Notes under the pieces: model-generated
Seen by the model: only the letters and a program-made list of their open reading frames with translations
Told to the model about the DNA's origin: nothing
Databases searched by the model: none
Shown here: piece by piece, positions 1-64,000 of the stretch
Layout: each line of letters begins with the position of its first letter
Position numbering within the stretch: the stretch's first letter is position 1
Position numbers and translations under genes: made by a program
Assembly: GCA_010093995.1 (NCBI GenBank)
Contig: ML992507.1
Location: 1,175,868-1,239,867, forward strand
Origin: Elsinoe ampelina
Taxonomy: Eukaryota
Direction: 5' to 3'
Length of the DNA stretch: 64,000 bases

Positions 1-350
1 GGGAGGAAATGGTCACGGATTCGTAGATGGCGTTTGTTGAAGAGGGGAAAGAGTTCGACAAGGAAGCGCGGACAGATGCTGGTGTGATCCTCACGGACAC
101 GACAGCAAGACGCTGGAAAGGGAGTGGTAATGTCCAATCATCATTGACGAGCTCAAGAATCGCTGCCGAAGCAAATAATGCACCCCGCTCGACTAGGCTA
201 ATTCGCTCGCTCGAAAAGCAGAAGCAGAAGTAAAAGTGGATCAGTCACTCCATCTCACCTTCACCCTCTCCCGTTCCCCCTCCGACCCACGATCCTCCCC
301 TTGGCATCTCCCTTCGCCTCTTCCGCCAACCCTGCCATCCCGTGGGTTTG

Positions 351-1523
351 CTAGATTCCACGGACATAAACAACCTTGTCCCCCCTCCCCCTACTCCTGC
401 TACGACTCCTGCTGCCCCTCTTCCTCACGATCGCCAAGCCCCCGCCTCGATCCTTCTTGGCCTCGATGAGAAACTTCTTCTTGCCTTTACCCCGCTGCTC
501 CTTTGTTTTATCGTGCAGGACCTCGAACATGGCTTGGTCCATTTCGCGGTAGATGATGATGTAGTTGGAGTCGACCTGCCACCAGTCAGTCAGGGCAGGG
601 ACGGGGAAGAAAGGGGAGGGAATGGAGGGGAGGGGGAGGGGTCAAGCAGGGGAGGGAAGGGGTGGGCTTACGGGGTCGTAGCGGTACGCGATTCCGAATT
701 CCTTGAGCACGTCGGTGGAAATGTCATGTCTGTGAGCGCGCGGGTAGACGGGTGTGCGTCCCGCGCCGGCGACGATGATGTCCCCCGCCGCGTGGTGGCC
801 GTGACCATGGTGGTGACCGGCGCCGTAGACCTGGGCGGAAGCGCCGGGGTAGGCGACGATGCTGGTCGTCTTTTGCTCGATGAGGCCCTCATTCTTCTCG
901 CCTTCGGCTCGGCGCATGATGCGGTCGATCTGGTTGTCGCTGTAGCCTGCCTTGCGGAGGTTGTCGCGGGTGGCTTCGTCGGCCTTGTCCTTTTCCTTTT
1001 TGGCCTTGAGCTCGGCTTCCTGGCGTTTCTTTTCCTGGAGAGCTTCGAATTCTTTGTATGCCTTGTCGGCCTTTTCCTTGGCCATGATCTCGTCGACGCG
1101 GATTTGTTCCTTGATTCGCTCCATTTCTTCCTCCTTTTTGCGTTTCTTGGCGGCTTGTTCGTTCTCCCATTGTGAGATGATCTGTTTGCGGTCCTCCTCT
1201 TCGTGGTGTTTGGCTTCGCTGTCGTCGAGGTTCTTCTTTAGACGTTCGATTTCTCGTTCCAAATGCCCGTAGGACGGACTGCGCGAGCGAGCATAGCTCA
1301 AGTCGGAGTGTGCTCGGTGTCTCCCTCGAGATTGGGAGACACGCAGATCGTGAATCTCATCCGCGATGCGGTCGATTTGACGCCCACGGTAGTCTGGCGA
1401 CGAGGGGACGAAGACATTGGTGGTATTTTCAGTTCGACCATGAGAGGATGATCGGTAATGATATGCGGGCGGAGAGAGATGAGGCGGTGGGTAGTATGGA
1501 TCATAGGGAGCGTAATAGACCAT
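351..1523 (-). CDS. Conserved fungal hypothetical protein (charged coiled-coil centre; C-terminal DUF8035-like motif), 2 exons: 1523-672, 575-351
   Basis: ORFs 642..1598 and 351..542 join through intron 671..576 (GTAAG donor, CTGAC branch, CAG acceptor), giving ...HRHDISTDVLKEFGIAYRYDP|VDSNYIIIYREMDQAMFEVLHDKTK. First in-frame ATG is at 1523. The family label is from memory of the motif. Confidence 0.7.
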
Positions 1524-2969
1524 GGTCACCGCTCCGGACTCGAGGCCAAGAAAATCGGGGCTTTCTCTATCCGAGGCTCGTGGTAGGGCTGAGATCAAGT
1601 GGGAGGAGTGAAATCGGAGCCAAACTCCGGTAAAGGAAGAACGCTGATGTTAGGATTGAAAGAATAGGCTTACAATGGCAGTGTAGACAAGGTGGGTAAG
1701 ATGTGGACGAATAGCAGAGAGTCTTACGGCGCGTCTTGTGGTTCATGTCAGATCAGATCAGCTGGCATGCGGCTGAGGACGAGATCAGGCCAGCAGCCAT
1801 CTATTCCGCTACCTTCTCTAGAGAGTGGGGCAGACATGTTGGGCATGGGAGATGGCGTTGTCGCTATGCTCGATTTGGGCCGTGGTGGTTCACGCTCTGG
1901 CTGCTAGACGGTTAGCATTTGTTACTGTAGCTCTGGTCGCGTATATCGAAGCGTGACAGCGAACCATGCTTCACGTCGAGTTCAAGAACCGGTGAAGGAC
2001 CCTCCAGGCGCTTGCTGACACTCGAACCTGTCATCAGTCACCCTCTCCCTAGGTTGGTCGAGCATGACCAAGAGCAGCGGCGCGTGCCGGTGAAGCCCAA
2101 AAGAGGCCCGGAGTATTTGGGTGAACCAGAGTTCAGGTCTCGTAGCCCTATGCTGCAGCTCGAGATTAAACCATGTGCATGTCAGCAAAACTGCCGTCTG
2201 GTGATTCTTTCCTTTCTGGGTCCACTTCGCTTTGACCACCTCACTCGTAGCTTCGGCCGTCGCCCAATCCACACTTCAACCCAAGACACTGTTGATACAG
2301 ACATCGTGGTCAAGACGACTACTTCTCATCGGTCCTTCTTCTAAAATTGACTACATGTCAGCCGAGAGCGACACCCAGCACCGAGCGCATCCATATCAAA
2401 GCATATGTGAAAGCCTACCGTCTTCCGATATTCGAGCCTTCCATCCTGTGGTCGTCCTCTGCCATTCAGAGTGTTCACGCACTACATACGGATGGTGCTC
2501 GTGGCAAACGATCCGGCCGGAAGAGCAAACAACCACAGCAGGTGGTCCGGTCCATACGAGAACATGGAACGTCCATCGACGGCAACGTCCCGGCAAATTT
2601 CATGGAAATGATACATTATCAGGATGGTATGTATAAGATAATAGTAATCATTCTTCAGTACTTGTTTCCCCCATTGCTTCGTCCTCAGATCCTCGACATA
2701 TATTTCTCCAGCATCTCATCCGGTACTGCTGCATCGCCAAAGCCAGCACAATTTAAGAAAGCACCATGTACACTCGATGGAAGAGCTAAAGGACGGAAAG
2801 AGGAGGGGGCAAAGGGAGAGGTCTATGGACGGGATTATTTGTAAATACTTTCGCGAAGCGTGGCTCTACGAACGAAGCAAAGGTAGTCGAAGCTATGGTA
2901 TCATACCGAGTCCGCACCTACACCTGCTCAACCTGCGATGCATCTATAATTCTCATCCCGCGCCACAGC

Positions 2970-5447
2970 TCAAAATCTCTGCATGACAGCCCTCACCACC
3001 CCAGGCAGCTCAACATGTCCCTTGACCATCACCTCCCCTATCCCCGTCTCCCCTCCACTCCCCACCTCCAACCACCTCGCCAACAAGTCGTTGCTCTCTT
3101 TCGGCTTGATGCTCTCATCCTCCGTGCCGACCGTGACATGCGCCACCCTGTTAGCAGATCTGAACTCCACTCCCTGTGCCTTGCCATTTTGATTCTCCTC
3201 CGCTTCAGTCACGATGCGAACGACGAAAGCCATGACCCTGTTGTCCCAGACTAGTCTCTCCAGCTGTACCTTGACTTTGCTAAGAGAGGGTTGCTCGGCG
3301 CCGTCTTTGGCTGATCCGGCCTGGGTCTGGAGGCCGTTCAGTTGTACCCAGTAGTCTTTCCACTGAGGCGTGTTGCTGTTGGCGCGGTGGATCAGAGTAA
3401 CGTGGAAGGCGGGTTGAATGCGTTTCATGCCTTTGAGGCGGTTGTACATTATGCTTGTGGTGGGGTCGGCGTCGCGGAAGATGGCTTCGAGGATGCTCTG
3501 AACGCGAGCGGCAGAGAGGGAGACACCAAAGTACTCGACCTTTGGAGGTTTCTGTTTTGGTTGTTGGTAGGTTTCTTGTCGTTGAGGTTTGGCAGCTTGC
3601 TTTTGCGCCTTATTGGAGTATTGGCTGCCATTGACAGAGTGTTTGATCTCGGGAGCGTAGTCGTTCACAGCGTAAGAGATGGCGTAGTCCATATCAGCCG
3701 AGGAAGGTAGAGTAGGGATGAGATTGGGGTAATGCTCGGAGAGAGAGGTGATGACGGTCTCCAGGTTCTGACGAGAGTCGGCGGCCACATCGAGGTCTAT
3801 CACATGGTCGAACATGTCGTCTGGATCTCCAGTCGGGTCCAGAGGTTCAAAGCGGTACATGAAGCCTTCCATAATCTCGATGATCTCGCTTGGGCCCTTT
3901 GTGCCTGCATGAATCGTTTGATGCTTGTCGCCGCGACCAAACACCCGATCACGCATCTTCTGACGGATATAGTCGTAGTCGGCACGGTCATGGACGTAGT
4001 GTAACGCCACAAACTTGGCTTCGTGAACGGTCTTGCCGACATCGTTGATGAGCTGCTTCCTCTCTCGCTTTTGATGATTGTTACGGTCAGCGATCATGAC
4101 AGGATAGTTGATCAGACCTTCACGGATGCCTTCAGCAAATCGTGCAGGCCGGCCTTTGCCCTGAATATTGTCGTTTTGAAGATGTCCCCAGCTGAAAAGT
4201 TTGGCAAGGGCTGTAGCAACAGTGGTCTTGCCACACCCGATGGTCGCTATGGGTACGAGGACAACGTTGCGGGTGGCTTCCCCCTTGTGCTGCTCTTCTT
4301 GCTCCTTCTCATTCTTAATAAGGTCTGCACCCCGGACACCAATATGCTTCAAGAACTTGTCTCGAAGTTCGATTATACCGTGGTTTTGGTTGTAGCGCCT
4401 CCCGAGCTTCGGGTCCTTCGCAAGCTGCTCCTTTGCGAATCTCAGGTATTCCTGGGTGATCTCCTTGTGTTTGTTGATGCGAGGCTCTTTGCCGCTGATG
4501 ATCGCCTTGGTGCACTCCCGCCATTGTCGATACATAAGGTATGGCTCCTCGAACTTGTATTTGAAGAACCAGTCATGCCACGGGCTGTCTGGAGTCTCTC
4601 TTGCTTGACATCGAATAACGAAACCTTCTGTGTCTCGACCTGCGTAGGCACCAGTATCTGCAATGTCATCGAGAAACGACTTTACCGTAGCGATATCGTC
4701 CTTGATGAGATGCATGGTTTTCTTGAATCCCCAGTCTTCGGCGAATTTGTCCACCAGATGAGCTGGGTATGTTGCAAACTCTGGTAGATTCAGATTGACA
4801 CCATGGAGGTAGAGACCTGCTTGATCTGGTGTGTACGCAAGGACGTGCTCCTCGAATTCATCATCGCACAGCTCGGCGACGGCAGTGATGTTGGCATTGT
4901 AGAGGTGTCGGGCTAGGTCCTTGCGATTCTTGCCGACCGACCCAAGATGACGATCGACCCATTGCTCCCCAGCAGAAGCATGTGACATTTCGACATCTTC
5001 ACGAGCTCCTGTCGAGTGCTTGCTGCAGACGAGTAGAGTGCCGTCTTCAAGTCCTGATAGGAAGATGATACATCCATTCTCTTTGACGGATAGCTCATAT
5101 GGTCCACGAGTATTCACCTCGACATTTTGCCACTTTGTCTTTGGGACCTCGCCGTGGTTGAAGAATTTGTCGTAGCCTCGGACAGCAATTTCGTAGTCAC
5201 CTCTGGAGTTCTTGTAGGTGAAGAGGCCACGTGCATATGTTGGAAGGAACGGTTTCTTGTAATCGTGATCTAGCAGTTTCCAGGATGTGACTTTGATGTT
5301 GGATCCAGCGACTGGGAAGACTGATTTTCTGCATGAGAAGCCACTTTTCTTCTTGCCTGTGTGTTCCTCGAGTGCCCCTACGACATGATTCACTTGTCGC
5401 GGATCTTGACGGCGATATGGAGGACGGTTCTCATCCCCATAATCCAT
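2970..5447 (-). CDS. TRL1: Fungal tRNA ligase (ligase-kinase-cyclic phosphodiesterase), intronless
   Basis: Ligase motifs ELSVKENG, EGFVIR, FFKYK; kinase P-loop ATIGCGKTT and ADRNNH; CPD HxT motifs FHVTL and AHVTVGT. First in-frame ATG is 5447; the track ORF starts at a TTG. Confidence 0.95.
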   Translation of the reverse strand: MDYGDENRPPYRRQDPRQVNHVVGALEEHTGKKKSGFSCRKSVFPVAGSNIKVTSWKLLDHDYKKPFLPTYARGLFTYKNSRGDYEIAVRGYDKFFNHGEVPKTKWQNVEVNTRGPYELSVKENGCIIFLSGLEDGTLLVCSKHSTGAREDVEMSHASAGEQWVDRHLGSVGKNRKDLARHLYNANITAVAELCDDEFEEHVLAYTPDQAGLYLHGVNLNLPEFATYPAHLVDKFAEDWGFKKTMHLIKDDIATVKSFLDDIADTGAYAGRDTEGFVIRCQARETPDSPWHDWFFKYKFEEPYLMYRQWRECTKAIISGKEPRINKHKEITQEYLRFAKEQLAKDPKLGRRYNQNHGIIELRDKFLKHIGVRGADLIKNEKEQEEQHKGEATRNVVLVPIATIGCGKTTVATALAKLFSWGHLQNDNIQGKGRPARFAEGIREGLINYPVMIADRNNHQKRERKQLINDVGKTVHEAKFVALHYVHDRADYDYIRQKMRDRVFGRGDKHQTIHAGTKGPSEIIEIMEGFMYRFEPLDPTGDPDDMFDHVIDLDVAADSRQNLETVITSLSEHYPNLIPTLPSSADMDYAISYAVNDYAPEIKHSVNGSQYSNKAQKQAAKPQRQETYQQPKQKPPKVEYFGVSLSAARVQSILEAIFRDADPTTSIMYNRLKGMKRIQPAFHVTLIHRANSNTPQWKDYWVQLNGLQTQAGSAKDGAEQPSLSKVKVQLERLVWDNRVMAFVVRIVTEAEENQNGKAQGVEFRSANRVAHVTVGTEDESIKPKESNDLLARWLEVGSGGETGIGEVMVKGHVELPGVVRAVMQRF

Positions 5448-6555: not shown

Positions 6556-6574
6556 GCATATGCCATCATCCTTT

Positions 6575-9056
6575 TCACCAGTGCCTCACTATACACAATA
6601 CTCCCTCAAGCTCGAGTCGTGATACCACGTTAGCCACACGACTTCGCTTCATACCCTCACGAGCTGCAATCTCCTCCAGAGCCCACTTGCCATCGAAGTA
6701 ATTGCTGATGGTCGACCACGTGCTCCTCAGCTCATCACTTGGTAGTGATTCCTTCATCAGCCCTATCCATCTGGACTCTTCTGGGCTTGCTTTCCGCGGA
6801 TCGAGAATCAACGATGGCTCGTGCGTCGTGAGTTCCAGGGGTGGGATACCACTTGAGCTGTCCTCTGTTGGGCCTGCAACCCCACCATTTATACTAAACG
6901 GCGAGGGCGGTTCCGGCGTACTCACCTGATTGAGCCTTGACGGTCCTGGTGTACTACTGTGGCTCACTTGGACTGTGGTCTTCTGACTGCTGACACTACC
7001 TGTCTCGGATCTGTTGCCATCGCTTACCGGCTTCAGCAAAGGTGAAAGCAATTCGGCAGCAACCGGTCTGTCATCCGTTGAAAGCGAGTCCCTTGTGCCG
7101 CTCTCATTTGTCCTCAGCCTCTCTAGACTCGATCCAGACAGACCAGATGCTGTAGAATCTCGCTTCGATGCCCGCTCTCGAGTACTTCCTCTCTGCTCAT
7201 CCTTCCTGGCCAAAATAGCAGCTTTGGCTTTGATATCGCCCGACACACGAATCCAGCCGAACGTTCGGAGTTGCGTCACCCAATTTCCTCTCAGTAACCA
7301 AGCTAAAATTTCCATGTAAGGGGCCTTGTGATCTTGACTGGGTACAAGAAAACCGTATGGCAACGACCTCGAGCTAAGGGATTGCAGCATACGAGATAAG
7401 CTCGGAAGACCTGGAAAGCGTTTCTCGAATACCTGACTTGCTTCGGGGTACTTTCTCATGTCTGCAAGTGGCGAGACCATGTAGATATCGCGAAGATGGA
7501 GTGGTGGAATTGCTCGAGCTCTCCTCCAGCTGATCAAGTGACGGGCAAGGAATAATAGATCTGGTAATCGCAAGGATAGCCGCACTGCCATCTTCTGCAG
7601 GGACTTGGTAGGCGTGAGCTCTCGAATGAATAATGCCAGAGGACTTGCCAGTTCACGATTGTCGTTTTCAATCTCTTTCAGTATTGCCTCCTTGTCTTGT
7701 AGAAGCAACAATGCCGCATGTGGACTCAACGCGCCATCATCCTCCAGCATGGTCGCTGTCGTCAACCAGAGTCCTGGTGTTCTCGGGTCACCTGGCGTAG
7801 GTGCAAAAGGTGTGGATACAGGCTGCGGTATCTGCAGAATAATGTCCACCGTTTCGCCGATCGCCACATGCGCAATCTTCGACGCTGAAATAGCCGAATA
7901 GACATGAGCCATCGACCTCGCAAGATGCGATGCCTGCATGATTGTCGGCCAGAGTAGGCTCAATGGCGTACCTGTAACCTGATCAGCTCCGCCCGGGCAG
8001 CTTGACATGACCCCTACCATTCTCCTTTCCCTTGACCTTCAACTCCAAGATCTTCTTGCTCTCCATCCAAACATACCCCGACCTCGCCTGCTCATACTTG
8101 AGCGCCTTCGCAAACTTCTTTACCACAAAATCATACATCTCGCCCACCCTCTCTTGGAACTCCAATGGCCGTGGCCGCATAACAAACACCACATGATACA
8201 TGACCATCTCATTACTGCTCACCCCCGAACTCGTACTCGTGCTTCTGACCTCATCGCTCAACCCCCCTTCACTCCTAAAACTCGCCTTATCCACCAACTC
8301 ATCCCCCAATCTCTCCCCACCCTTATCCCTATCCCTGCTCTTCTCCCTCTCCCCCTCCCCTCCCCCCCTCCTCCTCCCCTTCCGTTTCCTCCACCCCCCA
8401 TCCTCTCTGACAAACACCGGATACCCAAGAAACACCACCTCCCCCACCCCAACCTCGAACCTTTTCTTCCTCGTCTCCCGCCCAGGACTAAGCAATTTCT
8501 CCAGCCCCTCCACAGAATACCCAAGTACATCCTCCCACTCGGCCCTCCCCTGCTCTTGCCCTCCCCCTCTGTACCCCGTCCCTCCCCCCGCACGCGTCCC
8601 GGTCATATCCCCCTCCCGATCCTCCTCCTCCAACCCCTCCGGTCCATCCTCCCTCAACGTCCGCCCTTTCCTCCCCGCAGCTGCTCCTTTCTCCCTCCGC
8701 CGTGTACCCACGCTTTTGCTCCCCCCTCCCCCTCCCCCTGCCCCTCCTCTGCCGCTTCCCGTCCCGGCCCCCGTCCCTGCCCCCGTCCCATTCGTCGACA
8801 CCCCTACACTCGGCGCGAGGAGCGACGTCTTGTCGTCGTCCGAGGTGCTGGACGGGGCGGTCGCGGTATCGGGTTCGGTATCGGAAGGGGAGGCGGAGGT
8901 GAGGCTGTCGAGGGAGGGGCGGCGGGGGCGGTGGGCGCGTTTGGTGGAGGGGGAGGTGAGGGTGGGGGATGGCGGGTAGTGGAAGATGAAGCGAGGGCCG
9001 GAGCGGGTGGAGATTGTGAGGAGGAGGGCGAGGAGGGGGGGTTGGGTTGGTGGCAT
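6575..9056 (-). CDS. NPR3: Nitrogen permease regulator 3 (SEACIT/GATOR1 subunit), 2 exons: 9056-8018, 7971-6575
   Basis: N-terminal LLLTISTRSGPRFIFHYPP, KFAKALKYEQARSGYV, HLISWRRARAIPPLH, C-terminal FDGKWALEEIAAREG...VRHW. The 46-nt intron 8017..7972 (GTAGGG/CTGAT/CAG) joins the two ORFs in frame. Confidence 0.92.
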
Positions 9057-9309
9057 CTGGTCGGTGTCCTGGGGGTTAGAGAGTAATTGGGACGGCAATG
9101 GGTGGATTTGGGGGGGAGAGGTGATGGGTTGGGAGGTGCGGAGGTTGGGGCGGAGGTGTCACGTGCCGGATGGGGAGTCGCGACAACGCGACATGGGTTT
9201 CTAAATCGAGGATGGACGAAAGGGTCAAATATGCTGGTCACGTCGAGCTGAGCAGAGAGGTGTTGTAATATGCTTGGGACAGGCTGGCTATCCAATAACT
9301 TCCAGCCCT

Positions 9310-12300
9310 TTATTCTAATATCATGCTCATCACGTCCTGACTTATCGGCCTCTTCTTGAGCAGAAGATCCTTGCCAATCCTCCCTTGCTTGACCGGTTTT
9401 CTCTGCAATCCATTGTTGCCTCCTGTCTTTATCTCTCGCAATGGCGCCCTGCTCTCCTCAACCTTATCTTCCGGGGGAACTACGCCGCTGAAAGCCTCCT
9501 TGTCTGGCATCGAGTGCCCGCTGATCAGACTCTCATCGAGCTCGACCACACCATCCATGGCCTCCACAACGTCGATCAGCTTCCCCCATAAGTCGTCTCC
9601 GCGGAGAGTTCTCCGACTGCCCACAATGACAAACTTGCTCCTCGCTCTGGTCACAGCCACATTCACTCTCCGCCAGTCCCTCAAAAGATCCCCGACGTTG
9701 CCATCCTTGTTGTTCCGCACACAGCTTAGAATAATCACTTCCTTGTCCCGTCCCTGGAACTTGTCCGCCGTGTGCATCTCGATAGCTTCTGCAGGGGTAC
9801 CCTTGACTGTCTGTCGGAGCAGAGACAGCTGAGATCGATAGAAGGTAATGATGCCGATTTGCGAGGGAGAAAGACCTTGAGCAAGCAGAGTAGACACGAC
9901 CAGGTGGACAGTAGATGCCTCGTACGGGTTGGTGATGCGAGAGCCGGATAGGGACTCATGTGCGTTTGCGATGGTGTCGGTGTTGCCGAAGAGCACCTTT
10001 TCCCGAGGATTGACAAGTCTGGCTAGCAGAGAGCAACGAGACTTGGAGTGGCAGAGTTCAACCTGTACTGAGCCAATTCTGTGAAATGCATGCAAGGCAG
10101 GCTGATTTGGAATGTGCAGCGTTCGCTGAGCAACTGCTTCGTTGCCACATTTCAATCGTCCACTGTAGATGAGTGTGTTGGACAGGTGCATGATCTCTTC
10201 GGACATCCGATATTGGTGCTCTAGGTTGACGACACTTTCTGGTCGTCGATCCGAGAGGAGCTTGAAGAGAGAAATGTCCAGCCCACCTTCCTGAGCTTCC
10301 TTGTTCTGCACAAGTGGTGGAAGCTGGTAGTGATCACCGACCAGGACGAAAGTGCGTGCCATTCGAATCGGTCCTAGGCAGACCGGTAAAGTGATTTGAG
10401 AAGCCTCGTCCACGATGCAGTAGTCGAAGATGCGCTTGTGAAATAACTGGTGATTGACACCCAAGCAGGTTGTGGCGACCACGGAAGGTGCCATGTACAT
10501 TTCCTCAAGCTCAGGAATAGTCTGAGGAGGCATGCATGCTAGCTTTGCAAATTGCTGGACCTCTGGATGGATCTTCGCCTGCACGCCCAGTCGCAGGACT
10601 GAGATGGACGAATCTCGTAGCTTGAGCAGGATGTTGTCCACAGCTGTATGGGTATATGATGTGAGCAAGACTGACTTGCCTCTTGCAACCAGAGCTCGAA
10701 TGATGTGGGCAATCGTGGTCGTCTTGCCTGTTCCTGGCATACCTAGCACCAAAGCATAGTCCTGAGCAGACATGATCTTGTCGATGGCCCCTCGCTGATC
10801 GGAGTTGATCTGCATCTGGCTTGCTGGTCCGCTGAGCGTGTACGCCGTAGGACTCGGCTTGAATGAGGGCGCTTTGTTCTCGATGATCAGCTCGCGTAAT
10901 TCGTATGAACGAAAGACATCATCATCCATAATTGCAAGCAGATTGTTGCGGACAGTCGCCATGCCGTTACTGAACTCGTCCTTGTCCAGTCGGTACACGA
11001 CTTGGTGACCCTGCTCTTCGTCCTTTGCTGCAGTGCTTCGTACATTAGTCTTATCGACTTCCATGATCGCTGCGAACGACTGGTTCGTGTTGTCGTCAAA
11101 TCCAGGTTGACGAATCCGAGCATTGTGTAATCTGCGATCAACAGCTACACTGATCCTGTTCGAGGACACCTTCGTTACATATCCATTCGCCAATGCAAAG
11201 TGGCCCTTCTCGCTTGAGATGACGATCGGCTCGCCGACGGTGATCTGACTCTCAGCGAACGAGAAGCCAGCTCCAACACTTTTCTTGAGGAAGGTGTAGC
11301 TAAATCTGTTAATCTTCTGTGCATCTCGATCTTCGTGTGCAGATCCCGACTCGATAATGACTTCCGAAAAGCACCTTCCCAGCCTTTCTCGTTCATGGCT
11401 GAGCATTGTCCAAAGTTCTCGACGAAACTTGAACATCTCGGTCTCTTCCTTGGTCAGCAGCTCATCCCACTTCTTGAAGAAGCCTTGATGAGCAGGTCGA
11501 AGCTTCGCAACCACTTGAGCGAACTTCGTTCCAACGCCTGCTGAGTCTGCAGTGCCGTCTTCTGCGAGTTTGTGGTACAAGAAGCATGATGTTTTGGCGT
11601 AGCACCTTCCGCACTTGAACTCATTCTTCAGCATTGGAGGCAGAGACAAGCGTTCTCTGACATAGCTCGCAAGCTCGTTTCTCTGCATCACCATGTGTCG
11701 GAGCTCGTTCCGAATCGCTGGAATCCGACTGACTGCCGAGTTGTCCATGTAGTATAGTACACCGTACTGCACGTCGACATCTACATTCGTGAGTGACATT
11801 CGTCTGTCTGCCATATGATGCTTACCGTATCGATCAGATAATAGCAGAGTGTAGAGTGCCGTCTGAGCCCTGTGGGCTGCACTCTGATACTTTCCTGTTT
11901 TCACCTCGAAAGGAACTGTCAAATTCCTTCTCCCTTCGTCGTCGTCGAGAGCAATCTCCACTGTGGCATCAATATTGCCTTTCAGACCGTATTTTGGAGA
12001 CCACACATGCTCTTCGACATCGAGTAGCTTGGTCACGCTCAAGCCAACCGTCTTGCCATTTCGATCTTGTGCTTTGACTGTGTTCTGAGGGCTGTCAGTT
12101 CGATGTCTGTCAATGTGCATGCAGAACTGCTTACGCTCGGTGTTGACCGGATGAAGTGACCCGCCCAATCGCGCAGCTCGGGCATCTTCGAGGTCAAGAA
12201 CTCCACGGCTTCCACAGTGTCTTTTGCCCCAGCTTCGAACAAGCCTTCCACGTACTTGGCCACGAGATCTTCTATCAGATGACAAAGCCATTCCAGATCC

Positions 12301-15866: not shown

Positions 15867-16129
15867 AGCAGATTAGCACGCTAGGCAGAGATCCAATGAT
15901 AAATGTCGCCAAATCTGTTGGCATATATGCTCACGTGACAGTGTCTACCAGAAAACATTGCCCCTATTAGAGCCTCGCAGCGTCACAAGATTGCAACATT
16001 CGGAGTGGCACAGATCACGACCAGACAATCATATTTTTCCAAAAGGTGCAAGGGACAAATCCCACTAGTCGAGAAGAGACCAAATCATTTCCATACGCTG
16101 CGGGTCAATCGAATGTCTATCACCCGAGC

Positions 16130-21135: not shown

Positions 21136-21459
21136 TGGGCACTGATGTACGAGGGAAAGTTGGACTTGCAGGTCACCCAACTAGGATAGATGCAACATGG
21201 ATGAATGAAGATGATTATGAAAAGCTCGGGATTATGACTTTGTGACCGATGCAACATATTTGACTTGTGCATAGACTTGGTGGCCAATTTGATGGGCAAA
21301 GGGTGGGAGCCATGAGAATGAGAGGACATGCTGTGACGTCACGCCTTGACTGCACCTATCATCGGTCTTTGGTCCATTTATATAGTATCTCTCTCTACTC
21401 CTTCTTGCCATATTCCCCTCTACTTCAAATCGATAACACACATAACCAAGTAATCCAAC

Positions 21460-21893: not shown

Positions 21894-22164
21894 ACGCGAA
21901 AACGGTCCATGGAGGGGAGGTTGGGAGTATACCAGAGACGATAGCGGGGAGGAAGTAGTGGGGAAGAGGAAAGGATGGGGATCAGGCAGTGAGGAGGAGA
22001 TGGATAGATGGTGTCAAGTGTATGTGATATGCCGCATGGGAGGAGGAGTTCAGGGTCATGGGATTTTGGCAGGGAGGATCTACAACAGCCATAGCTCAGA
22101 CATCGACAGAATCTAAACACTAGTGTCCTCGCTTTCTCCCCTTCCTAGCGATACGTCACCAGTC

Positions 22165-45045: not shown

Positions 45046-45863
45046 AGGGGATGCAAGAGATTTCTTATGTTATTGACGAGGGCGATGGTGGAGGCGGAGG
45101 TGAAGTGAGGTTTGGAGGTGGAGGAGAAAGAGGAAGGCGGATGAGGACAAGATTGTTGATATGCATTGTCGGGGCCTGAACAGATTGATGGATGATACCC
45201 CTGTTTAACTTTGATGTTTTTTTTTTGGCTGGTAGCTGTCAGAGAATGTTCCCTATACATAGCTGTGATGGCCGGACGAGGGATGGTGGATCACCCGCTT
45301 GCTGTGTAGATTTCGACATTATCAATTCATTCACACAGACCATTTCGCTCTGATATATGTATCATTGACCTACGCTAGAAATGGGAAAAAGTGGTATCTC
45401 TTGCCCTGTCCCCTCTTCGCCCGCTCGCTCGCGCCGGTCGCTAATCGATGGATGGATGTATCAGTACCGACGCCGTGGAGGTCCGATCCTGCTCATGCTG
45501 CTGTGCCTGTCCTGTTGCATCGCCGTCATGCGTCATGCGTCAATCCGTCGTTGGTCGTGATCATTCTGCCCTACTACCGCGCCGTACTAGTGCCGGTGTC
45601 TTGTCCTTCGTGTTCATGGTAGTCATGCTGTCCCTGTCCTGCCAGCCTGTCCCTCGTGCGTCGTTGACCCGTGCCTTGCCTGGTCGTGGGTCCAATTCTT
45701 CTGAGCTGTGAGGAATGTGTTGTGGTTTCACTTGTGCCCGCTGAGGTCGATTGGCTCTGATTTCAATAATCGCTCGTAACAGCTAGGAAGGTAATATATG
45801 CGCTTTGTCATGCACGTGCCCTCCTTCATGCTTCCAAGTTGTGGCTGGGGTGGGGCGAATACC

Positions 45864-53666: not shown

Positions 53667-55745
53667 ATGGATCAGCTCTTACAAGGCGCCAAGTCGATCC
53701 TCGACTCGGTGTACCCAGAGATCTCCTCCATCGCAACATTCAGCATTCCAACCACCGTAGTGATTGATGGCTCTACATACCGGATACCGGCCATTGCGCT
53801 ACCGACGCCTTCGACCACAAGTAGCTCTTCGTCGTCCTCGTCGGGCTCATCCTCGACACCATCATCCACATCTTCGAGAGCTTCCTCTACCAGCTCGGCT
53901 CAAATAACCACCCCAGCTCCAGCTCAGACTTCTCTCGACCTGAACCGGACCCCAACTTCTTCACCACAAGCGCCGACGGGCACAAATGCCGGTCACAGTC
54001 CTGACCGTCGTCTGGGCATCATCTTGGGAGTCACTCTGTCCTTGCTCGCCATCCTCATCGCGATTGGTGTCATATGGTTCGCCTACCGCCGCAAGAAGCG
54101 CACAGGGTACTGGCTCAAGCACAAGCCCCCTCCAAGCGATGAAGAGGTGGACACGTGGCGAGATGAGAAGGGCGTCAAGGAGAAGCCAACATCCAGCTTC
54201 TTCGTTCGTCCCCTCAACCACACTTCGCATATCTGGTCCGAGCACGGCGCAAGCAATCGCTACCAACCCATCACGAACTCGGCTCCTCACATGGCAAGCG
54301 TCGAACCTGTCAAGCCGGGCAGCGCGGGCAAAGGTGATCCCTGGACCGGCGCTTCTGGTCTTCCTGGTGGTACAGGCGCTACCCGCATCAGCGAGCGCGA
54401 AGTCGCCCCCGATGGTAGCAGTGTGCCACTCATGGCCGGAGCTGCTGGCGCCGCGACAGGTGCAGCAGCAGCAGGGGCAGCAGCAGGGGCAGCAGCAGTC
54501 GGGACCACAAACTCCACCTCACCTACGAACGGAGCGCCTCTCAATTCTAACCCCAACCCCTTCTCCACATCACCACCCAAGTCGTCCCCACTAAGCCAAC
54601 CACCAATCAACGCCCCCTCGCCCTCTCCACCACCCATGCCCACCGAGATCCCAGCCGACCACTCCCACACCGTCTCCCGCACTGCCGCAGCCGCAGGCCT
54701 AGGCGGTCTCGCCGGCCTCGCCGCCGCCCGCCACGCCCGCAAATCCTCCTCTCACAGTCGCAGCCGCAGCCGCGGTCACCCCCGCCCCAGCACCGAGAAC
54801 ACGCACCCCGCCTTCCGCCCTTCCCTCGACAACCCGGACAACAACCACTCCTCCTCCGACTCCTACCACACTCCCCCCGAAGACCTCGCGGCCGAAATGA
54901 CCGTCAACGACGGGCCCTACGCCCGCGCCCGCCGCGCCAGCTGGGGCGAAAAGCGACACAGCTGGAGCCACCGGCGGTCCTCAGGAGGCGACATACCTGC
55001 GGAAGTATCCTGGCGGCAAAGCCGGGACATGGAGATCGCGCCTGTGCCCGACCCCTACACATCCGCCGGCGGGACACGCAGAAGCTGGGGCGAACGCACC
55101 GGCCTCGACACCTCCCGCACCCAAGAAGGCGAACGCAACCGGCCCCCAACACCACTCATGCACGCCTTCTTCGGCAAAGGCCACGCCAAAACCACCGACG
55201 CCACCCCCGACGCCGCAGCAGCAGCAGCAGGCACAGCCCAAGGCGCAGACGAGCCCTTCCTCCCTCGTCAACAACCCCGCGGCCGCTCCGACACCGTCAG
55301 CACCCGCCGCGGCACCATCTCCCGCAAACCCGTCCCCGCGCCCATCCAAACCAACCTGCCCCAAGAACGGCCCGTGAGCAACCCCTTCGTGAGCCCAGCG
55401 GATGACTACGCGGAGCACTCCCCCGGCCCCTACGGCGGGAGCCCGGTGTACGCCGCCAACCGTCACAGCAGCGGGATGTATACGAGGGGTGACTACGAAG
55501 AAGATTACGGTCCCGCGCCGCTGGTGCCGACGCGGAGTCCGCAGAGGGGGTCGAGGGAGTGGACCCCGACGCGCAGGGAGAGTCCCAGGGTGCATTACCC
55601 TTCCGGACAGGAGGTGGGCATGTTTGATTTTGGGTTGACGAGGGAGGAGTTGAGGGGTTTGAGGGAGGCCGGGGGGAGGGGGAGTATGGATGGGCCTGGG
55701 GGAGAGGGGAGGACGTGGAGTTTTGAGAGGGGGGAGGGGGTTTGA
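53667..55745 (+). CDS. Single-pass membrane protein with Ser/Thr-rich N-terminal region and long disordered tail (Mid2/Wsc-like architecture)
   Basis: Poly-Ser/Thr tract, TM segment LGIILGVTLSLLAILIAIGVIWFAY followed by RRKKR, then a ~550-aa Pro/Ser/Arg-rich tail; start context aaccATGg. Confidence 0.75.
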   Translation: MDQLLQGAKSILDSVYPEISSIATFSIPTTVVIDGSTYRIPAIALPTPSTTSSSSSSSSGSSSTPSSTSSRASSTSSAQITTPAPAQTSLDLNRTPTSSPQAPTGTNAGHSPDRRLGIILGVTLSLLAILIAIGVIWFAYRRKKRTGYWLKHKPPPSDEEVDTWRDEKGVKEKPTSSFFVRPLNHTSHIWSEHGASNRYQPITNSAPHMASVEPVKPGSAGKGDPWTGASGLPGGTGATRISEREVAPDGSSVPLMAGAAGAATGAAAAGAAAGAAAVGTTNSTSPTNGAPLNSNPNPFSTSPPKSSPLSQPPINAPSPSPPPMPTEIPADHSHTVSRTAAAAGLGGLAGLAAARHARKSSSHSRSRSRGHPRPSTENTHPAFRPSLDNPDNNHSSSDSYHTPPEDLAAEMTVNDGPYARARRASWGEKRHSWSHRRSSGGDIPAEVSWRQSRDMEIAPVPDPYTSAGGTRRSWGERTGLDTSRTQEGERNRPPTPLMHAFFGKGHAKTTDATPDAAAAAAGTAQGADEPFLPRQQPRGRSDTVSTRRGTISRKPVPAPIQTNLPQERPVSNPFVSPADDYAEHSPGPYGGSPVYAANRHSSGMYTRGDYEEDYGPAPLVPTRSPQRGSREWTPTRRESPRVHYPSGQEVGMFDFGLTREELRGLREAGGRGSMDGPGGEGRTWSFERGEGV

Positions 55746-56054
55746 TTGTGAGAGGTGAGGAGGGGCAGGGGAAAAGGGGAGGGATGATGTATATGATGTG
55801 ATGGATTTCTTTGTCTTTTTTTGATACCAGGTCTAGATACACAAACGAGTTTCACCAATGTCATCAAGCTTCGAAATCCAACCCAATGTCTTCTTTTTTC
55901 CCCCTCTGTTATCACATCTCGTGCATCTCCGAGCGAATCTTGAGCTGTCCCTGGCGACCTCGCAGGTTTGGATCTGCGCTGTAAGTCATGTATTATAGGA
56001 AAATCGACGTTGGTATTGTCTTCGAGGTTGTAGCCAGACGCTGGTAGAGTGGGG

Positions 56055-60229: not shown

Positions 60230-60495
60230 TATCATGTACTCTGATCTCTTCACTTTGGATACAGGCCATTCTTAGGGACGGTAGGATCAGGCGCAATCGG
60301 CCTCCGATACCCAGTCACATTCCCAGCATCTCGCATCTTCAAAATCAAAAACACATTTGAATATTCTCCATTGACGGACCTGCTCGCAAAAGAACCCAGT
60401 TGACTGTTGCAAGCCATCGATGTTTAGACGCCAGCCAGTCCATCTTGTCACTCATGCACTCTCTCCTCTGTCCCTCTCCCGCATCATGCACCCCT

Positions 60496-61257
60496 CTAGT
60501 CCGTCTCAATGTTCGTCCTCTCCGACACATAAAGACCATCCAAGAACTTTCGGATATCCTTGTTCCTCACCCTGCAGATCTGCTGAATATCGGCGGCCGA
60601 CTGCGACACAGCCTCGAGCGAGTTGCCAGTGATCTGGAGCTCATCCTTGACGTTCTTGGAAGCCTCAACATCGACGCCTGGCTGCATCTTGACGTTGCGG
60701 ACGAGCTTCTCGCCCAAGAAATTCCTAATCACAGCCCGTCAGGAATCGTTTCTTCAGGACAAAAGATTGCCGGGCAAAAAAAATCTTACCTGATCTCCAC
60801 GTTCCACAGATCCGTCTCCTTGTCCTTCTCAAAGTTGACGTTGATGGGGAAATGTGCGTACACGTAGCGCATCTTGTACTTGTAGCCCTTTGTGACGCCG
60901 ATGATCATGTTGTTGATGATGGAGCGGACGGTGCGGAGCGTGGCGACGGCTTTGCGCGAGCCATGGTGGAGTTCGATTGAGATGATGTTCTTCTTGGGGT
61001 GGGAGAAGGAGACTGAGAGATGGCCGAGGTTCTTGGTGAGTTTGCCTGTTGGTCAATTGGTGAGTTTGGGTGTTCCGTGTCCTTGCTCTTCTTTGGAATT
61101 CATACCTCGTGGGCCTTCTACCGTGACGATTCTTGTCTTGATGCCGACCTTGACTGGAGCGCATTGTGTTAGTCGCATGATGCGTATGCTGGGAGGATGG
61201 AGTCGTCTAACCTCCTTCTGGAATCTCCAGGGTTTGGTCCGAGTGGATGTACTTCAT
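60496..61257 (-). CDS. RPL9: 60S ribosomal protein L9 (uL6), 192 aa, 4 exons: 61257-61212, 61153-61106, 61045-60790, 60724-60496
   Basis: [61 protein letters not shown]. Exon lengths sum to 579 nt. Confidence 0.97.
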
Positions 61258-61644
61258 TTTGAATGTGCCGGAGTGATTTTGTCGCTCTGGTCGTCGTCGA
61301 TGCCGGAGATTGACTCTGTACGTCGTTTGGCTGGATGTCAAAAATTCCACATTGTGGGAGTGCGGTCGGAAGCACGGGCCGACCGATTAGACTTTGTCCG
61401 CCCCACTTTCTCATTCGTCAACCTCGAGTATTGTCAACATGGACTTCGAATTTCTACCGCATCATAATTCGAATATTCTAACATCTGCTCTCTACAAAGC
61501 GTGCAGGATCGCGACTTCGGACCTAGGGAACTAGCGGTCTCCATAATCGACTAAATAAGGCGTCGTCCATAATGGTATCAATGGCGATGCTCACACAATC
61601 TCCCTGAGGAAGTTTGAGGCTTCACGTTCCGAACGTCGTACATC

Positions 61645-64000
61645 ATGGCAAAAAATTCACCGTTCGCAAAAGATGCGGGCATCAACGGCAAAGATCGTAA
61701 AGGATCCAATTCTCTAGTAATATGCAGAAACAAGTGAGTTGTACGTCCTGCAAATTTCTGATTGTCTCCTTTTCATATTGTGGAGGATGGATCTGCATGT
61801 CGAGCATCACTCGGGTTCAACGACGCTCGAGATTATCGAGTCAGGAGTTTTCCTCAGAAGCATCGCTTCCCTTATACGATTGAATTGGACGACAAGGATT
61901 GTACTGACCCTACAAAGACACTGGAGATATATCTCTTGCTATCATGGACCATGGTTCCAGCTACCACCAGAGCTTCTCGAATCGCTGGCCCACGAAAACT
62001 TCATTATGCCACAGCCAAGACTGATCGATCCAGCCGTCTTCTTCGACATTGTCAAAATCAGGCGAGCCATCGATGAGGCTACGGAAGAGGCTGTTCGTGC
62101 GAACAGTGGCGTCAGCAATGTCGGCAATTCCTCCCGGTACGATCCGTTCGGTGGAGGTCAACAGCCTGCATCACAGATGAGTAAGGAACGCATACACCGA
62201 GTACGCCAAAAAGCCGTGAAGCTGCTTGCCAAGGCCTATGCATTGGACGAAGTGGCGGCAAGTGTGGTCACAATGTCTTCAAGCTCGTCTCTTGAAGACG
62301 TCGCCGAGCATGTGTTACGACGGGACAAGGAGGACATCGACGCTAAGTACGTGCACTTCTTCCACGAGAAGATCCCGTCAAGGATGGAGGAGCATACGCC
62401 GTTGACTCCGCTGGACGAAATCATGGCGAAGATGGCCTGGGAAGCTCAAGGTGCTCCGTTCAGGACCAGAGGCTTAGTGCGCATCATGAAGAGTGACTTA
62501 GAGCACGCAGCAGATGACTTTACATACTCGTTGAGGATTGCACAAGAGCTGAAGAAGCGACACAAGCCGGGTAACGACCAGCTCGTCCTTGCCAAAGACT
62601 TCAAGAAAGCTCAGGAACAGTGGGAGAGGAATCCAAAATCGATACCGCAACTCAAGGACGATGAGCAACCAACAAGTATGGAGCAGCAATTGTTCTTCAA
62701 TCGCGGTAACGTCTATCTTGCACTGGCTTGCGATAGCGTGCACGAGTCACTAAATGGGCTGGACGGATACATGCGAAAAATCACACCAGACCCCAAAACT
62801 GGCAACACCGAAGACCTGACGCCGAAGGAGGTTCAACAGCACTCCATCCGGCTTGAAGCTCGCAAACGAGTCAAGACGTATGCGAAGAGAGCGTGGAAGG
62901 ACTACATGTCTTTCCTGGGCTTCTTTGACTACACACCTGGCTTCCCAAATGAGGTCACCCAGGAGATTATGCAAAGGGTGTACGACATCGCCGACGGGGC
63001 TAAGTCCAATGTGAATGGTCATCACGATGATGATACTCACTCAGCCTTGAGCTCGATCCGTCGAGATGCTCTTGCGGTCAAACAATCCAGCAAGCCATCG
63101 CCATTCGATCTATCTTCTATTCCTCCACCAAAAGTGTACTCCTCGGATGCCCTATTCGCCTCTCAACCTCTTCCCGATCTACCACCTTTTCCAAGTTCCG
63201 AGCCTCCGAACAACAATCCGGCTTCTTCAATCCCTGGTGTGCGTGAAGCGCTCACGTATCACCCTCTTTTGCCCGATGCCCTGCATTCTCTTCTTCTCAC
63301 GCACTGCCTCCTACAGACGTCCCCAACCGAATTGCAACGCCATGCTCACTCCGCCGCTCGCCTCTCCCGCATAGCTGACGGCTATCCTATCTTTCAACCC
63401 CCGCGCTCTCCAGCCCGCGCCGACTGGATCGAGATTCTCCGCAAATGCAACAATTGGATCAAGCTCCCCATGGGCTGGGCAGAAATGTGCCGTCCAGTCT
63501 CCGCCGCCGCCAGCACCAAACCCAATACCAACGGCACGGTAGCCAGGAACGGCCAGTCAGCTTCAAAGCCTACGGAGACCGACAAAGAACGTAAGAATCG
63601 GATCCGTCAACAGGCCATCGCCGACGCCATGGGCGACGAGCGTGTAGTCGACGAAGAAACCTTCCATCAATCCGTGTCTGCTCGCGAGAAACGTGCAGAG
63701 GAAGATGAAGAGCGTGACAAGCGCCTCTTCACCCCTGTAACTCCGGGGGATAAGCTTCTCCAAAACGGTGCCGCAGCTGTTGGCAAGGCAGAAGCGCGAG
63801 AGCGATTGAAGGATGAGAAGTTGAAGCGCTGGGCGGAGGATGAGGCGTTGAAGGAGTACCCCGTCACTACAGAACGTGTGGAGGCGATCAGTAGGTGGGT
63901 CAGAGAGGCGCCCGGGGTCATGCCTGGTGCCCCGACGAGAAAGAAGAAGAAGGCTGCGGGAAAGAGGAAGAAGAAAGAGGGTGTGCTGGAAGGGATGGAG
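61645..64000 (+). CDS. Conserved fungal protein with TPR-like helices, truncated by the window end; exons 61645-61733, 61918->64000
   Basis: Absent from the ORF track because there is no stop in the window. Spliced reading: MAKNSP...LVICRN|KHWRYISCYHGPWFQLPPELL...IDPAVFFDIVKIR...AKYVHFFHEKIPSR...QLFFNRGNVYLALA...TYHPLLPDALHSLLL. The 184-nt intron has GTGAGT, CTGAC and an AAG acceptor. Confidence 0.8.

Follow-up and report, generated by a model that had tools for sequence, protein, structure and literature searches.

Gene-anchored C-to-G skew switches in a 64-kb window of the Elsinoe ampelina genome

The window analysed here is a 64,000-nucleotide stretch of Elsinoe ampelina DNA (contig ML992507.1, positions 1,175,868 to 1,239,867, assembly GCA_010093995.1) containing islands in which C-rich sequence gives way to G-rich sequence. 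The islands are probably the most pronounced local instances of a compositional sawtooth anchored to the genes of this fungus, for which a transcription-linked bias is the favoured cause. The switches are anchored to stop codons, independent of protein coding and specific to G versus C, and the pattern is a published one, in which the two ends of fungal genes have GC skews of opposite sign.

Results

Skew tracts in the window

An initial annotation of the window had listed ten tracts that run C/T-rich and then G/A-rich, separated by ordinary DNA. All ten spans proved to have two arms, C-rich on the left (GC skew -0.26 to -0.84) and G-rich on the right (+0.29 to +0.64), and each arm lay 4.2–14.8 SD from zero. 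The GC skew of the entire 64-kb window was -0.008. GC content in the spans was 0.59–0.67 compared to 0.54 window-wide, the islands were 0.65–1.4 kb wide, and the skew of each arm returned to baseline after approximately 400–800 nt. The tracts and their skew are therefore real, but the purine switch is not, as the A/T skew of the arms did not change sign in most spans; only the balance of G and C is affected. When the arms were compared for repeats, the only matches common to them were low-complexity and at most 70 nt long, and the host genes were unrelated and single-copy. All 26 G-quadruplex (G4) motifs of the window lay inside arms, compared to 2.4 motifs in shuffled sequence.

Flips were called at a threshold of 0.6, giving 13 C-to-G and 8 G-to-C flips at L=300 and 15 and 13 at L=200, a density of about one C-to-G flip per 5 kb at L=300. 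The reported fixed order of C before G held in all ten spans but carries little information, because a C-to-G gradient on the sense strand reads C-to-G on either strand. Flips of the opposite sense were nearly as common in the window and fell at transcript ends. The gene models used to place the features below were built from open reading frames, Pfam hits and one homologue set, and may contain misplaced stops; expression, antisense RNAs and the ends of transcripts were all inferred.

125..1001, minus strand: island 1, 3' part of gene 1 (exons 642-1649 and 351-~573, intron ~574-666, stop 351-353); sense C arm (+ strand G-rich) 475-1001, sense G arm (+ strand C-rich) 125-561; flip ~541, 190 nt upstream of the stop.
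2843..3786, minus strand: weak switch, 3' end of the tRNA ligase (TRL1-like) gene, absent from the initial annotation; flip 3271, 301 nt upstream of stop 2970.
7927..9320, minus strand: island in NPR3 exon 1, the exception; flip 8816; sense C arm of ~340 nt over the 5' UTR and first codons, then sense G arm of ~800 nt ending near intron 1.
9287: G-to-C flip, 23 nt past the Dna2 stop.
9500..10100, minus strand: weak switch, Dna2 3' end; flip 9816, 506 nt upstream of stop 9310.
16103..17015, minus strand: ferroportin (FPN1) island, last exon, within the Pfam domain; flip 16533, 403 nt upstream of stop 16130.
21390..22080, plus strand: island over a whole small transcription unit, which we take from its translation to be a CsbD/Hmp1-like gene; ATG 21460, very C-rich intron ~21530-21690, flip 21718, stop 21893, G-rich 3' UTR up to ~22080.
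22079: G-to-C flip where the CsbD-like and Med16 islands adjoin tail-to-tail.
22111..23081, minus strand: Med16 3' end island; flip 22542, 377 nt upstream of stop 22165.
30713..31366, plus strand: island over a whole small secreted-protein gene (120 aa), beginning directly after a TATA-like box; ATG 30879, flip 31065, stop 31241.
31431..32663, minus strand: island over most of an LPX1-like alpha/beta-hydrolase gene; ATG 32801, flip 31835, 338 nt upstream of stop 31497.
44090..45317, plus strand: 3' end island of a 2045-aa coiled-coil ORF; flip 44764-44834, stop 45045, G arm extending into the 3' UTR.
46001..46617, minus strand: 3' end of a Zn2Cys6 transcription-factor gene, a sense C arm only, the G arm being weak; flip 46112, stop 45864.
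53758..55909, plus strand: 3' end island with a long C arm, ORF 53634-55745 (no Pfam family); flip 55467-55483, 262 nt upstream of the stop, G arm to ~55800-55900.
60285..61121, minus strand: switch in a presumed ribosomal protein L9-like gene, named from its translation; sense G arm on the low-coordinate, 3' side.
63050..64000, plus strand: weak island in ORF 61721-64000, which runs off the end of the window before reaching its stop; flip ~63629.

One further flip, at 59357 and likewise absent from the initial annotation, reflects amino-acid composition, as it falls in a Lys/Glu/Asp/Gly-rich linker of a glutaredoxin gene.

Anchoring to stop codons

The sense-strand skew was superposed on the stop codons of 19 genes in 100-nt bins. 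Each of the last two bins was G-biased in 17 of the 19 genes (means +0.24 and +0.41), while between -900 and -500 the skew was positive in just 3–5 genes (means -0.14 to -0.24). The flip lay at -485 to -155 in 14 of the 19 genes, and in 14 the G arm ended 21–243 nt past the stop. Eleven of the 13 C-to-G flips fell 175–506 nt upstream of a supported stop, compared to an expectation of 12% for a zone of 150–520 nt that was picked after the data had been seen. Seven of the 8 G-to-C flips fell 23–253 nt past a stop. The skew around 14 putative ATGs was C-biased, averaging -0.11 to -0.22 from -200 to +300, and in two small genes the island begins directly downstream of a TATA-like box and reaches the 3' end.

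The DNA between the islands is not ordinary, since weaker switches occur at most other gene ends, including those of Dna2, the mitochondrial carrier, the aminotransferase, beta-tubulin, Zn2Cys6a, the RPL9-like gene and NPR3 itself. Ank and SIR2 had no switch in the stop-aligned profiles of the 19 genes. The initial annotation had placed most islands over gene 3' ends, with NPR3 as an exception, and both points are borne out by the flip positions; its view that gene annotation does not explain the islands is overturned, as position and polarity follow from gene ends. What stands of its interpretation is a nucleotide-level strand asymmetry found mostly over 3' ends, and what falls is the notion of gene-independent, point-centred islands. 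The strongest island, in NPR3 exon 1, does not lie at a supported gene end and counts against a stop-anchored rule.

Independence from protein coding

Third codon positions track the skew, which passes through conserved protein sequence. Skew at fourfold-degenerate sites swings from about -0.85 to about +0.85 in the ferroportin domain, the LPX1-like hydrolase and the 2045-aa coiled-coil ORF, and likewise in NPR3 exon 1, in agreement with the earlier proposal of a strand-asymmetric effect that overrides codon choice. The LPX1-like protein is conserved over its whole length, and the fourfold skew of its gene changes from -0.68 upstream to +0.77 over the final 100 codons, at a fourfold-site GC of 0.91–0.94. 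Pooled fourfold skew was +0.26 in the last 100 codons, -0.42 at -900 to -400 and -0.14 farther upstream (Fisher p=2e-39). The share of G-ending Gln, Glu and Lys codons in these three zones was 78, 51 and 61%, and that of C-ending codons among the pyrimidine-ending two-fold codons was 56, 68 and 59%. Fourfold-site GC rose from 0.48 upstream to 0.61–0.63 in the last 900 nt.

The skew continues outside coding sequence, as had been reported for introns and UTRs. The intron of the CsbD-like gene contains 95 C and 5 G among 161 nt, the gene 1 intron contains 51 C and 12 G among 93 nt, and the pooled 3' flanks (+1 to +100) have a skew of +0.21 (p=5.6e-11). Since the skew persists at fourfold sites, in these two introns and in the 3' flanks, amino-acid composition is not its cause.

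The switch in other fungi

The C-to-G switch at gene ends is also present in other fungi. In a set of 51 non-redundant environmental sequences orthologous to the LPX1-like gene, the three bins of the last 300 nt were G-skewed in 51, 51 and 50 sequences, and the fourfold skew of the last 100 codons exceeded that upstream in 40. In a wider set drawn from 55 environmental fungal loci, with 111 long ORFs of which about half are orthologues of one gene, the switch was present in 100 ORFs at all sites and in 78 at fourfold sites. Compared with these relatives, the window has no greater average strength of the switch, though it contains more extreme genes.

Discussion

Comparison with known skews

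McLean and Tirosh (2011, BMC Genomics 12:638, PMC3315797) described fungal genes whose 5' and 3' ends have GC skews of opposite sign, a bias seen at fourfold sites, in amino-acid usage, and in promoters as well as UTRs, with a flat A/T skew. The skew correlated weakly with expression (R about 0.07–0.10) and negatively with GC content; mutational and adaptive hypotheses were put forward and the cause was left unknown. The window has the same pattern at fourfold sites and in UTRs, again with A/T skew that does not flip. Their data are species-wide averages over 40 bins per gene, from a species list in which Elsinoe and the Myriangiales are absent, whereas the window resolves individual genes. 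Individual genes here approach saturation (fourfold skew about -0.85 and +0.85, GC3 near 1), change sign inside about 100 nt and have a C arm that intensifies right before the flip. The strongest skews in the window coincide with raised GC, in contrast to the negative correlation of that study.

Positive terminal GC skew on the sense strand, enriched at genes with close neighbours, is reported by Ginno et al. (2013, Genome Res 23:1590, PMC3787257). The strong G arms of the window likewise favour convergent 3' ends. There, however, R-loops were mapped in human cells, while the window is known from sequence alone; human genes are G-skewed at their 5' ends where the window genes are C-skewed, and the human terminal skew is described without a preceding C arm. 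C-biased skew around plant and fungal transcription start sites, as reported by Fujimori et al. (2005, BMC Genomics 6:26, PMC555766), resembles the C-rich sense strand near the 14 putative ATGs, but as a start-site effect it leaves the terminal G arm and, in long genes, the C arms kilobases from the start unexplained. The GRINS repeats (2021, PNAS, PMC8256042) are similar in that an intense local nucleotide skew recodes coding sequence without destroying the protein. They are linked to gene conversion between paralogous modules, unlike the window arms, which lie in unrelated single-copy genes and have only low-complexity sequence in common.

Origin of the skew

Among the explanations offered in the initial annotation, only selection for G-rich 3' RNA is still viable, and we consider it rather unlikely. 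The same anatomy would here be kept by selection instead of mutation bias: in a compact genome, G-rich, C-poor terminal RNA on a C-rich template would favour the formation of G-quadruplexes or R-loops, at which RNA polymerase II would pause and terminate, and a C-rich, G-poor gene body would avoid R-loops. An alternative form, proposed in PMC3315797, is that C avoidance near 3' ends tunes elongation under limiting CTP. Strong G arms, defined as a G minus C excess of at least 100 by a threshold set post hoc, were found at 7 of the 11 genes whose neighbour is convergent and at 0 of the 6 whose neighbour is tandem (Fisher p=0.035, Mann-Whitney p=0.028), a small sample that includes one putative neighbour ORF (56058-57071). 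Six of the seven convergent genes have their stop 256–310 nt from that of the neighbour, and terminal GC skew with R-loops is reported by Ginno et al. 2013 at approximately 2000 closely spaced human genes. In the tightest convergent pair, however, Ank and NPR3, whose stops are separated by 20 nt, the switch is weak or absent, and the G4 enrichment, which would also favour selection, is a trivial result of arms being G-rich. Selection would further have to fix nearly all silent sites in genes that are normally not highly expressed, such as Med16 and ferroportin, and it is hard to see what the C arm that intensifies right before the flip would contribute to termination.

Recombination or double-strand-break hotspots are a good deal less probable. 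GC-biased gene conversion would raise GC3 and asymmetric resection or fill-in at a break would give a point-centred flip, consistent with the rise in fourfold-site GC, most pronounced in the LPX1-like gene, and with the NPR3 island away from a gene end. The width and spacing of the islands also resemble the scales of conversion tracts and hotspots in yeast. A gene-blind process would not place 11 of 13 flips at a narrow distance from stops and end 14 of 19 G arms just past them, and hotspot positions would not be expected to stay fixed over the divergence of the 51 distant orthologues, all 51 of which carry the switch in the same position. The polarity would also be opposite, because resection of DNA ends runs 5'-to-3' and cytosine deamination on the resected 3'-ended single strands predicts C loss on the strand observed to be C-rich.

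Replication origins, where the skew sign would switch as leading and lagging strands swap, share the C-rich then G-rich polarity of bacterial origins and mammalian origin skew jumps, but are highly improbable because flips recur about once per 5 kb and are tied to stops (11 of 13 in 64 kb); the skew covers only about 400–800 nt per arm where replication skew reaches the next terminus, and its sign tracks gene orientation by construction. Equally improbable is a selected RNA or DNA fold-back pairing the two arms as a long hairpin: minimum-energy folds of three islands do have 176/222, 150/206 and 184/273 pairs between arms and the CsbD-like island folds better than arm-wise shuffles (z=-8.2), but composition alone yields such pairing, the other two islands are near their arm-wise shuffles (z=-1.1 and -2.1), energies are near those of whole-sequence shuffles of the same composition (-257 vs -238, -315 vs -315), and inverted matches in six island regions are short and low-complexity (at most 30 nt, 70–100%).

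The most likely cause is a transcription-coupled asymmetry of damage or repair between the strands, because only transcription both distinguishes the strands and registers the end of a gene. Beta-tubulin is normally highly expressed and has only a weak switch, so a bias simply proportional to transcription does not fit. The sign of the asymmetry would instead reverse as RNA polymerase II enters its termination phase, and R-loops over the G-rich terminal stretch may deepen the bias by exposing the sense strand to cytosine loss, with local GC enrichment accompanying the skew. In anatomy, most genes of Elsinoe ampelina probably have a sense strand that is C-rich and G-poor at silent sites, in introns and in UTRs, most strongly within the 500 nt or so that precede the switch point. 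The last 300–500 nt or so of the transcription unit are G-rich and C-poor, in a segment beginning about 150–500 nt before the stop codon and ending about 20–250 nt after it. Short genes are covered whole, and in tail-to-tail pairs the two units adjoin, which produces a G-to-C flip.

Gene content of the window

The window was found to be nuclear DNA from a filamentous ascomycete, densely packed with genes and with a GC content of 54%. A gene map was obtained from a Pfam scan (138 of the 161 ORFs of at least 110 aa), which gave a tRNA ligase, an ankyrin protein (Ank), NPR3, Dna2, a mitochondrial carrier, ferroportin, a PHD protein, Med16, a Sir2-family protein (SIR2), an aminotransferase, an alpha/beta-hydrolase (the LPX1-like gene, − strand), tubulin, a LIM protein, two Zn2Cys6 factors and a glutaredoxin. 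The closest matches to the hydrolase came from Elsinoe fawcettii (84%), Sphaceloma murrayae (73%), E. australis (69%) and Myriangium duriaei (59%), and the source DNA is therefore that of an Elsinoe-like Dothideomycete. All results refer to this one window, with gene models consisting of ORFs and Pfam matches, and some of the thresholds were set after seeing the data.

Gene models referred to by position; islands are tracts that run C-rich (C arm) and then G-rich (G arm)
ATG 21460 to stop 21893, + strand: gene with one intron, which from its translation we take to be CsbD/Hmp1-like; its island begins immediately downstream of a TATA-like box and continues through the whole 3' UTR
ATG 30879 to stop 31241, + strand: 120-aa secreted-protein gene; its island, too, begins immediately downstream of a TATA-like box and continues through the whole 3' UTR
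59190–60229, + strand: glutaredoxin gene with an N-terminal hydrophobic anchor, a long Lys/Glu/Asp/Gly-rich linker, an intron near 59890 and a Grx domain exon
60300–61400, − strand: gene with several introns and a sense C-to-G switch, presumably ribosomal protein L9-like from its translation, with no Pfam match among the ORFs scanned

Strength and nature of the skew

The ten islands listed in the initial annotation were examined for GC skew, (G−C)/(G+C), and all ten were borne out. Runs of strong skew in 200-nt windows paired C-rich then G-rich at every listed place, and the best split of each span gave a left skew of −0.26 to −0.84 and a right skew of +0.29 to +0.64, each arm lying 4.2–14.8 SD from zero in spans with a GC of 0.59–0.67. 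Within the ferroportin Pfam domain, the hydrolase and the terminal 900 nt of a coiled-coil ORF of 2045 aa, the skew at fourfold-degenerate sites moved from approximately −0.85 to approximately +0.85, reaching up to ±0.9 in single genes, and A and T were almost absent from the third positions of these islands. At two-fold sites the Gln, Glu and Lys codons of the C arms ended in A rather than G, while codons of the G arms ended in T rather than C, giving a silent-site order on the sense strand of G >> T > A, C in the G arm and its complement in the C arm. Two introns inside C arms were more skewed than the exons (C 95 and G 5 of 161 nt; C 51 and G 12 of 93 nt), and the pooled 3' flanks (+1 to +100) had a skew of +0.21 (p = 5.6e-11), the arm continuing into non-coding DNA. 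The loss of skew at fourfold and non-coding sites was looked for and was absent. The skew overrides codon choice, as had been proposed, and its presence at fourfold sites rules out amino-acid composition as the cause of the islands. The GC of the fourfold sites (GC4) was found to travel with the skew, from 0.48 upstream to 0.61–0.63 in the last 900 nt, with values of up to 0.94.

Two parts of the original description of the skew were not upheld. The arms had been described as C/T-rich and G/A-rich, but the sign of the A/T skew was unchanged across the flip, the point at which the GC skew changes sign, in 8 of the 10 spans (the exceptions being 240–670 and 21530–22080), and the direction of its change varied, indicating that the effect is one of G versus C and not a pyrimidine-to-purine switch. 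The order, said to be always C then G, is not distinctive, since G-to-C flips were nearly as common as C-to-G flips in the window (8 against 13 with 300-nt arms, 13 against 15 with 200-nt arms; threshold 0.6), and it arises because a C-to-G gradient on the sense strand reads the same on either strand.

Anchoring of the skew switch to gene ends

The 19 genes with supported terminal ORFs were aligned at the stop codon and read on the sense strand. The last two 100-nt bins were G-skewed in 17 of the 19 genes each, with means of +0.24 and +0.41, while bins from −900 to −500 had means of −0.14 to −0.24 and were positive in just 3–5 genes. The first 100 nt past the stop were still G-skewed at +0.21, and the mean skew around 14 putative ATGs was −0.11 to −0.22. 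The pooled fourfold skew was +0.26 in the last 100 codons, −0.42 at −900 to −400 and −0.14 further upstream (Fisher p = 2e-39), and the proportion of Gln, Glu and Lys codons ending in G was 78, 51 and 61% in the same three regions. Amino-acid usage was also shifted, with a skew of +0.33 in the last 100 codons against −0.04 at −900 to −400 for codon position 1, and of +0.04 against −0.31 for position 2.

The flip lay 155–485 nt before the stop in 14 of the 19 genes and the G arm ended 21–243 nt past the stop, also in 14 of 19. When the flips themselves were considered, 11 of the 13 C-to-G flips were 175–506 nt upstream of a supported stop, a zone that was picked after seeing the data and that takes in 12% of the window (binomial p = 5e-9), and 7 of the 8 G-to-C flips were 23–253 nt past a stop. 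The same switch was present in genes that had not been listed, namely Dna2, the carrier, the aminotransferase, beta-tubulin, a Zn2Cys6 gene, the RPL9-like gene and NPR3 at its own 3' end, so that the DNA between the islands, previously considered ordinary, contains weaker switches at most gene ends. Among the 19 aligned genes the switch was weak in beta-tubulin and not seen in Ank and SIR2. The islands had been interpreted as point-centred and independent of genes, and this is not supported, as flips and G-arm ends are tied to stop codons; the islands are the strongest teeth of a gene-anchored sawtooth.

The strongest island, at 8011–9177, breaks this gene-end rule. It lies in NPR3 exon 1, with the − strand coding through both arms: the C arm encodes the conserved N-terminus of NPR3 and is followed by approximately 800 nt of G-ending codons, and the island ends near intron 1 at a distance of 2.2 kb from the NPR3 stop. 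Read on the + strand the island has a C arm of 801 nt and a G arm of 336 nt, which are typical sizes, and the G-to-C flip at 9287 is 23 nt past the Dna2 stop, resembling a tail-to-tail junction. The arm sizes and the position of this flip suggest a putative antisense transcription unit on the + strand over NPR3 exon 1.

Features of individual loci

In the CsbD/Hmp1-like gene and the 120-aa secreted-protein gene, the first half of the island is rich in C and the second half in G, and each of these islands lies directly next to the G arm of a convergently oriented neighbour. The C-rich intron of the former contains, at 21590–21640, about three tandem copies of a C/T unit of approximately 13 nt, suggesting that slippage contributes to the formation of the low-complexity arms. 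Runs of C/T and G/A of a similar kind were observed in exon 1 of NPR3 and also in 3' UTRs.

In the first island (125–1001, − strand) the flip was assigned to a stop on a corrected gene model: an in-frame stop lies within an intron (donor GTAAGC, acceptor CAG), and the true stop is at 351–353. The hydrolase protein aligned with its orthologues end to end, down to a C-terminal AKM (AKL or SKL in relatives). The public LPX1-like model P0001 (396 aa) lacks about the last 38 residues of the ORF and of the orthologues (31497–31620, − strand), while the ORF continues in frame past this point to the PTS1-like AKM terminus, and the 3' end of P0001, within the G arm, looks mis-called.

The stops of the ankyrin gene (+) and NPR3 (−) are 20 nt apart (6555–6575), so their 3' UTRs must overlap, and there is almost no skew switch at this junction. 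In the coiled-coil gene, approximately 280 nt between the arms (44500–44780) have about 75% GC, near-zero skew and many CpGs with no sharp flip, in contrast to the switches of about 100 nt elsewhere. An unlisted flip at 59357 was rejected as a G arm, the purine-rich stretch being due to the amino-acid composition of the glutaredoxin linker.

Comparison with other fungi

A skew of this kind has been described by McLean and Tirosh (2011; PMC3315797), who reported that in fungal genes the coding strand has a C bias at the 5' end and a G bias at the 3' end, with the bias reaching fourfold sites, amino-acid usage, promoters and UTRs, a flat A/T skew and a weak correlation with expression. The window matches this description in the C bias of the 5' end and gene body, the 3' G bias, the reach into UTRs and other non-coding DNA, the presence at fourfold sites, the amino-acid shift, the roughly flat A/T skew and the sharing of the pattern by relatives. 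The species list of that study includes the Dothideomycetes Pyrenophora and Stagonospora and does not include Elsinoe; the window is a further lineage with the published pattern, in which individual genes are unusually extreme.

The conservation of the switch was examined in hydrolase relatives encoded by 80 metagenome loci, among which 51 non-redundant loci reach the C-terminus. The last three 100-nt bins were G-skewed in 51, 51 and 50 of the 51, part of which reflects a conserved C-terminus rich in Gly, Glu, Trp and Arg. At fourfold sites the last 100 codons were more G-skewed than codons −300 to −134 in 40 of 51 (means of +0.16 against −0.21), and the hydrolase of the window was the most extreme, with a fourfold difference of 1.45 compared to a maximum of 1.25 in the relatives and a GC4 of 0.91–0.94. 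Long ORFs were also scanned independently of annotation in 55 non-redundant loci of at least 3 kb, and a switch was present in 100 of the 111 environmental ORFs when all sites were counted and in 78 when fourfold sites were used, compared to 17 and 16 of 21 window ORFs by the same procedure; about half of the 111 are hydrolase orthologues and hence not independent. The window was not significantly stronger on average than the environmental fungal ORFs (Mann–Whitney p = 0.16; 21 against 111 ORFs), while jumps in fourfold skew of more than 1.0 were found in 5 of 21 window ORFs and 7 of 111 environmental ORFs (p = 0.024). The window has a heavier tail, and a categorically stronger skew than in other fungi is not supported on average.

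Origin of the skew

The cause of the switch was left open by the paper that described it (PMC3315797), and literature searches gave no later paper that settles it and none on GC skew in Elsinoe. Of the candidate processes only transcription both tells the strands apart and is bounded by gene ends, and the cause is therefore taken to be linked to transcription, with the sign change approximately 300–500 nt before the end of the transcription unit. In the G arm an exposed sense strand would lose C, and possibly A, giving the silent-site pattern observed there; R-loops over G-rich RNA could provide this exposure and reinforce themselves, and the C arm would need a mirror process on the other strand. 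A bias merely proportional to transcription is disfavoured by the weak switch of beta-tubulin, its absence from Ank and SIR2 and the strong switches of Med16 and ferroportin, genes that are not normally highly expressed.

The alternative with some support is that the G-rich 3' end is kept by selection as an R-loop or G4 terminator. Strong G arms were found in 7 of the 11 genes whose neighbour is convergent and in none of the 6 whose neighbour is in tandem (p = 0.035, in a small sample with a post hoc threshold), and termination by R-loops at closely spaced human genes is proposed by Ginno et al. (2013; PMC3787257). The tightest convergent pair, Ank and NPR3, is however weak. Canonical G4 motifs numbered 26, with 13 on each strand, where shuffles gave 2.4. 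All of them lay within island arms, and on each side of a flip they were on the strand running 5' to 3' away from it, but this enrichment follows from composition. Gene conversion bias may contribute to the rise in silent-site GC, as a hotspot with GC-biased gene conversion would be expected to give a local increase such as that from 0.48 to 0.61–0.63 near gene ends.

The remaining explanations were rejected. The case for fold-back is weak, as folding energies were near those of shuffles in 2 of the 3 islands folded. True inverted repeats were not found, the inverted matches being short and of low complexity. Repeats, mobile elements and GRINS were dismissed on the comparison of arms with one another, which gave 1 non-self match (21 nt) with the low-complexity filter on and 9 matches of at most 70 nt at 74–95% identity with it off, all of low complexity; GRINS tracts (PMC8256042) are repeats, unlike the arms of the islands. 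Point-centred double-strand break hotspots with deamination of resected strands would have the wrong polarity, and the islands are gene-anchored. With 13 flips in 64 kb, arms of 0.2–0.8 kb and 11 flips tied to stops, the islands are too dense and too short for replication origins.

Within the transcription-linked reading a more specific scheme can be proposed, which we consider improbable as a whole. A self-reinforcing cycle, in which R-loops formed by G-rich terminal RNA expose the sense strand to the loss of C and a gain of G and T and so stabilise further R-loops, would push the ordinary gene-end skew near to saturation at some genes, mainly in tail-to-tail pairs; an antisense counterpart would build the C arm, and the NPR3 exon 1 island would mark an unannotated + strand antisense unit ending beside the Dna2 3' end. 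If this were true, the islands would mark strong sense and antisense R-loop sites and could act as two-way terminators.

Implications

Gene ends should be the first thing considered for skew-flip islands in fungi, ahead of origins or hotspots. The near-saturated genes, which switch within approximately 100 nt, provide a high-contrast system in which to separate mutation bias from selection. Near C-termini, codon choice and amino-acid composition are distorted by the skew, which also opens ORFs in every frame and may mislead gene prediction, as in the shortened public model of the LPX1-like gene.
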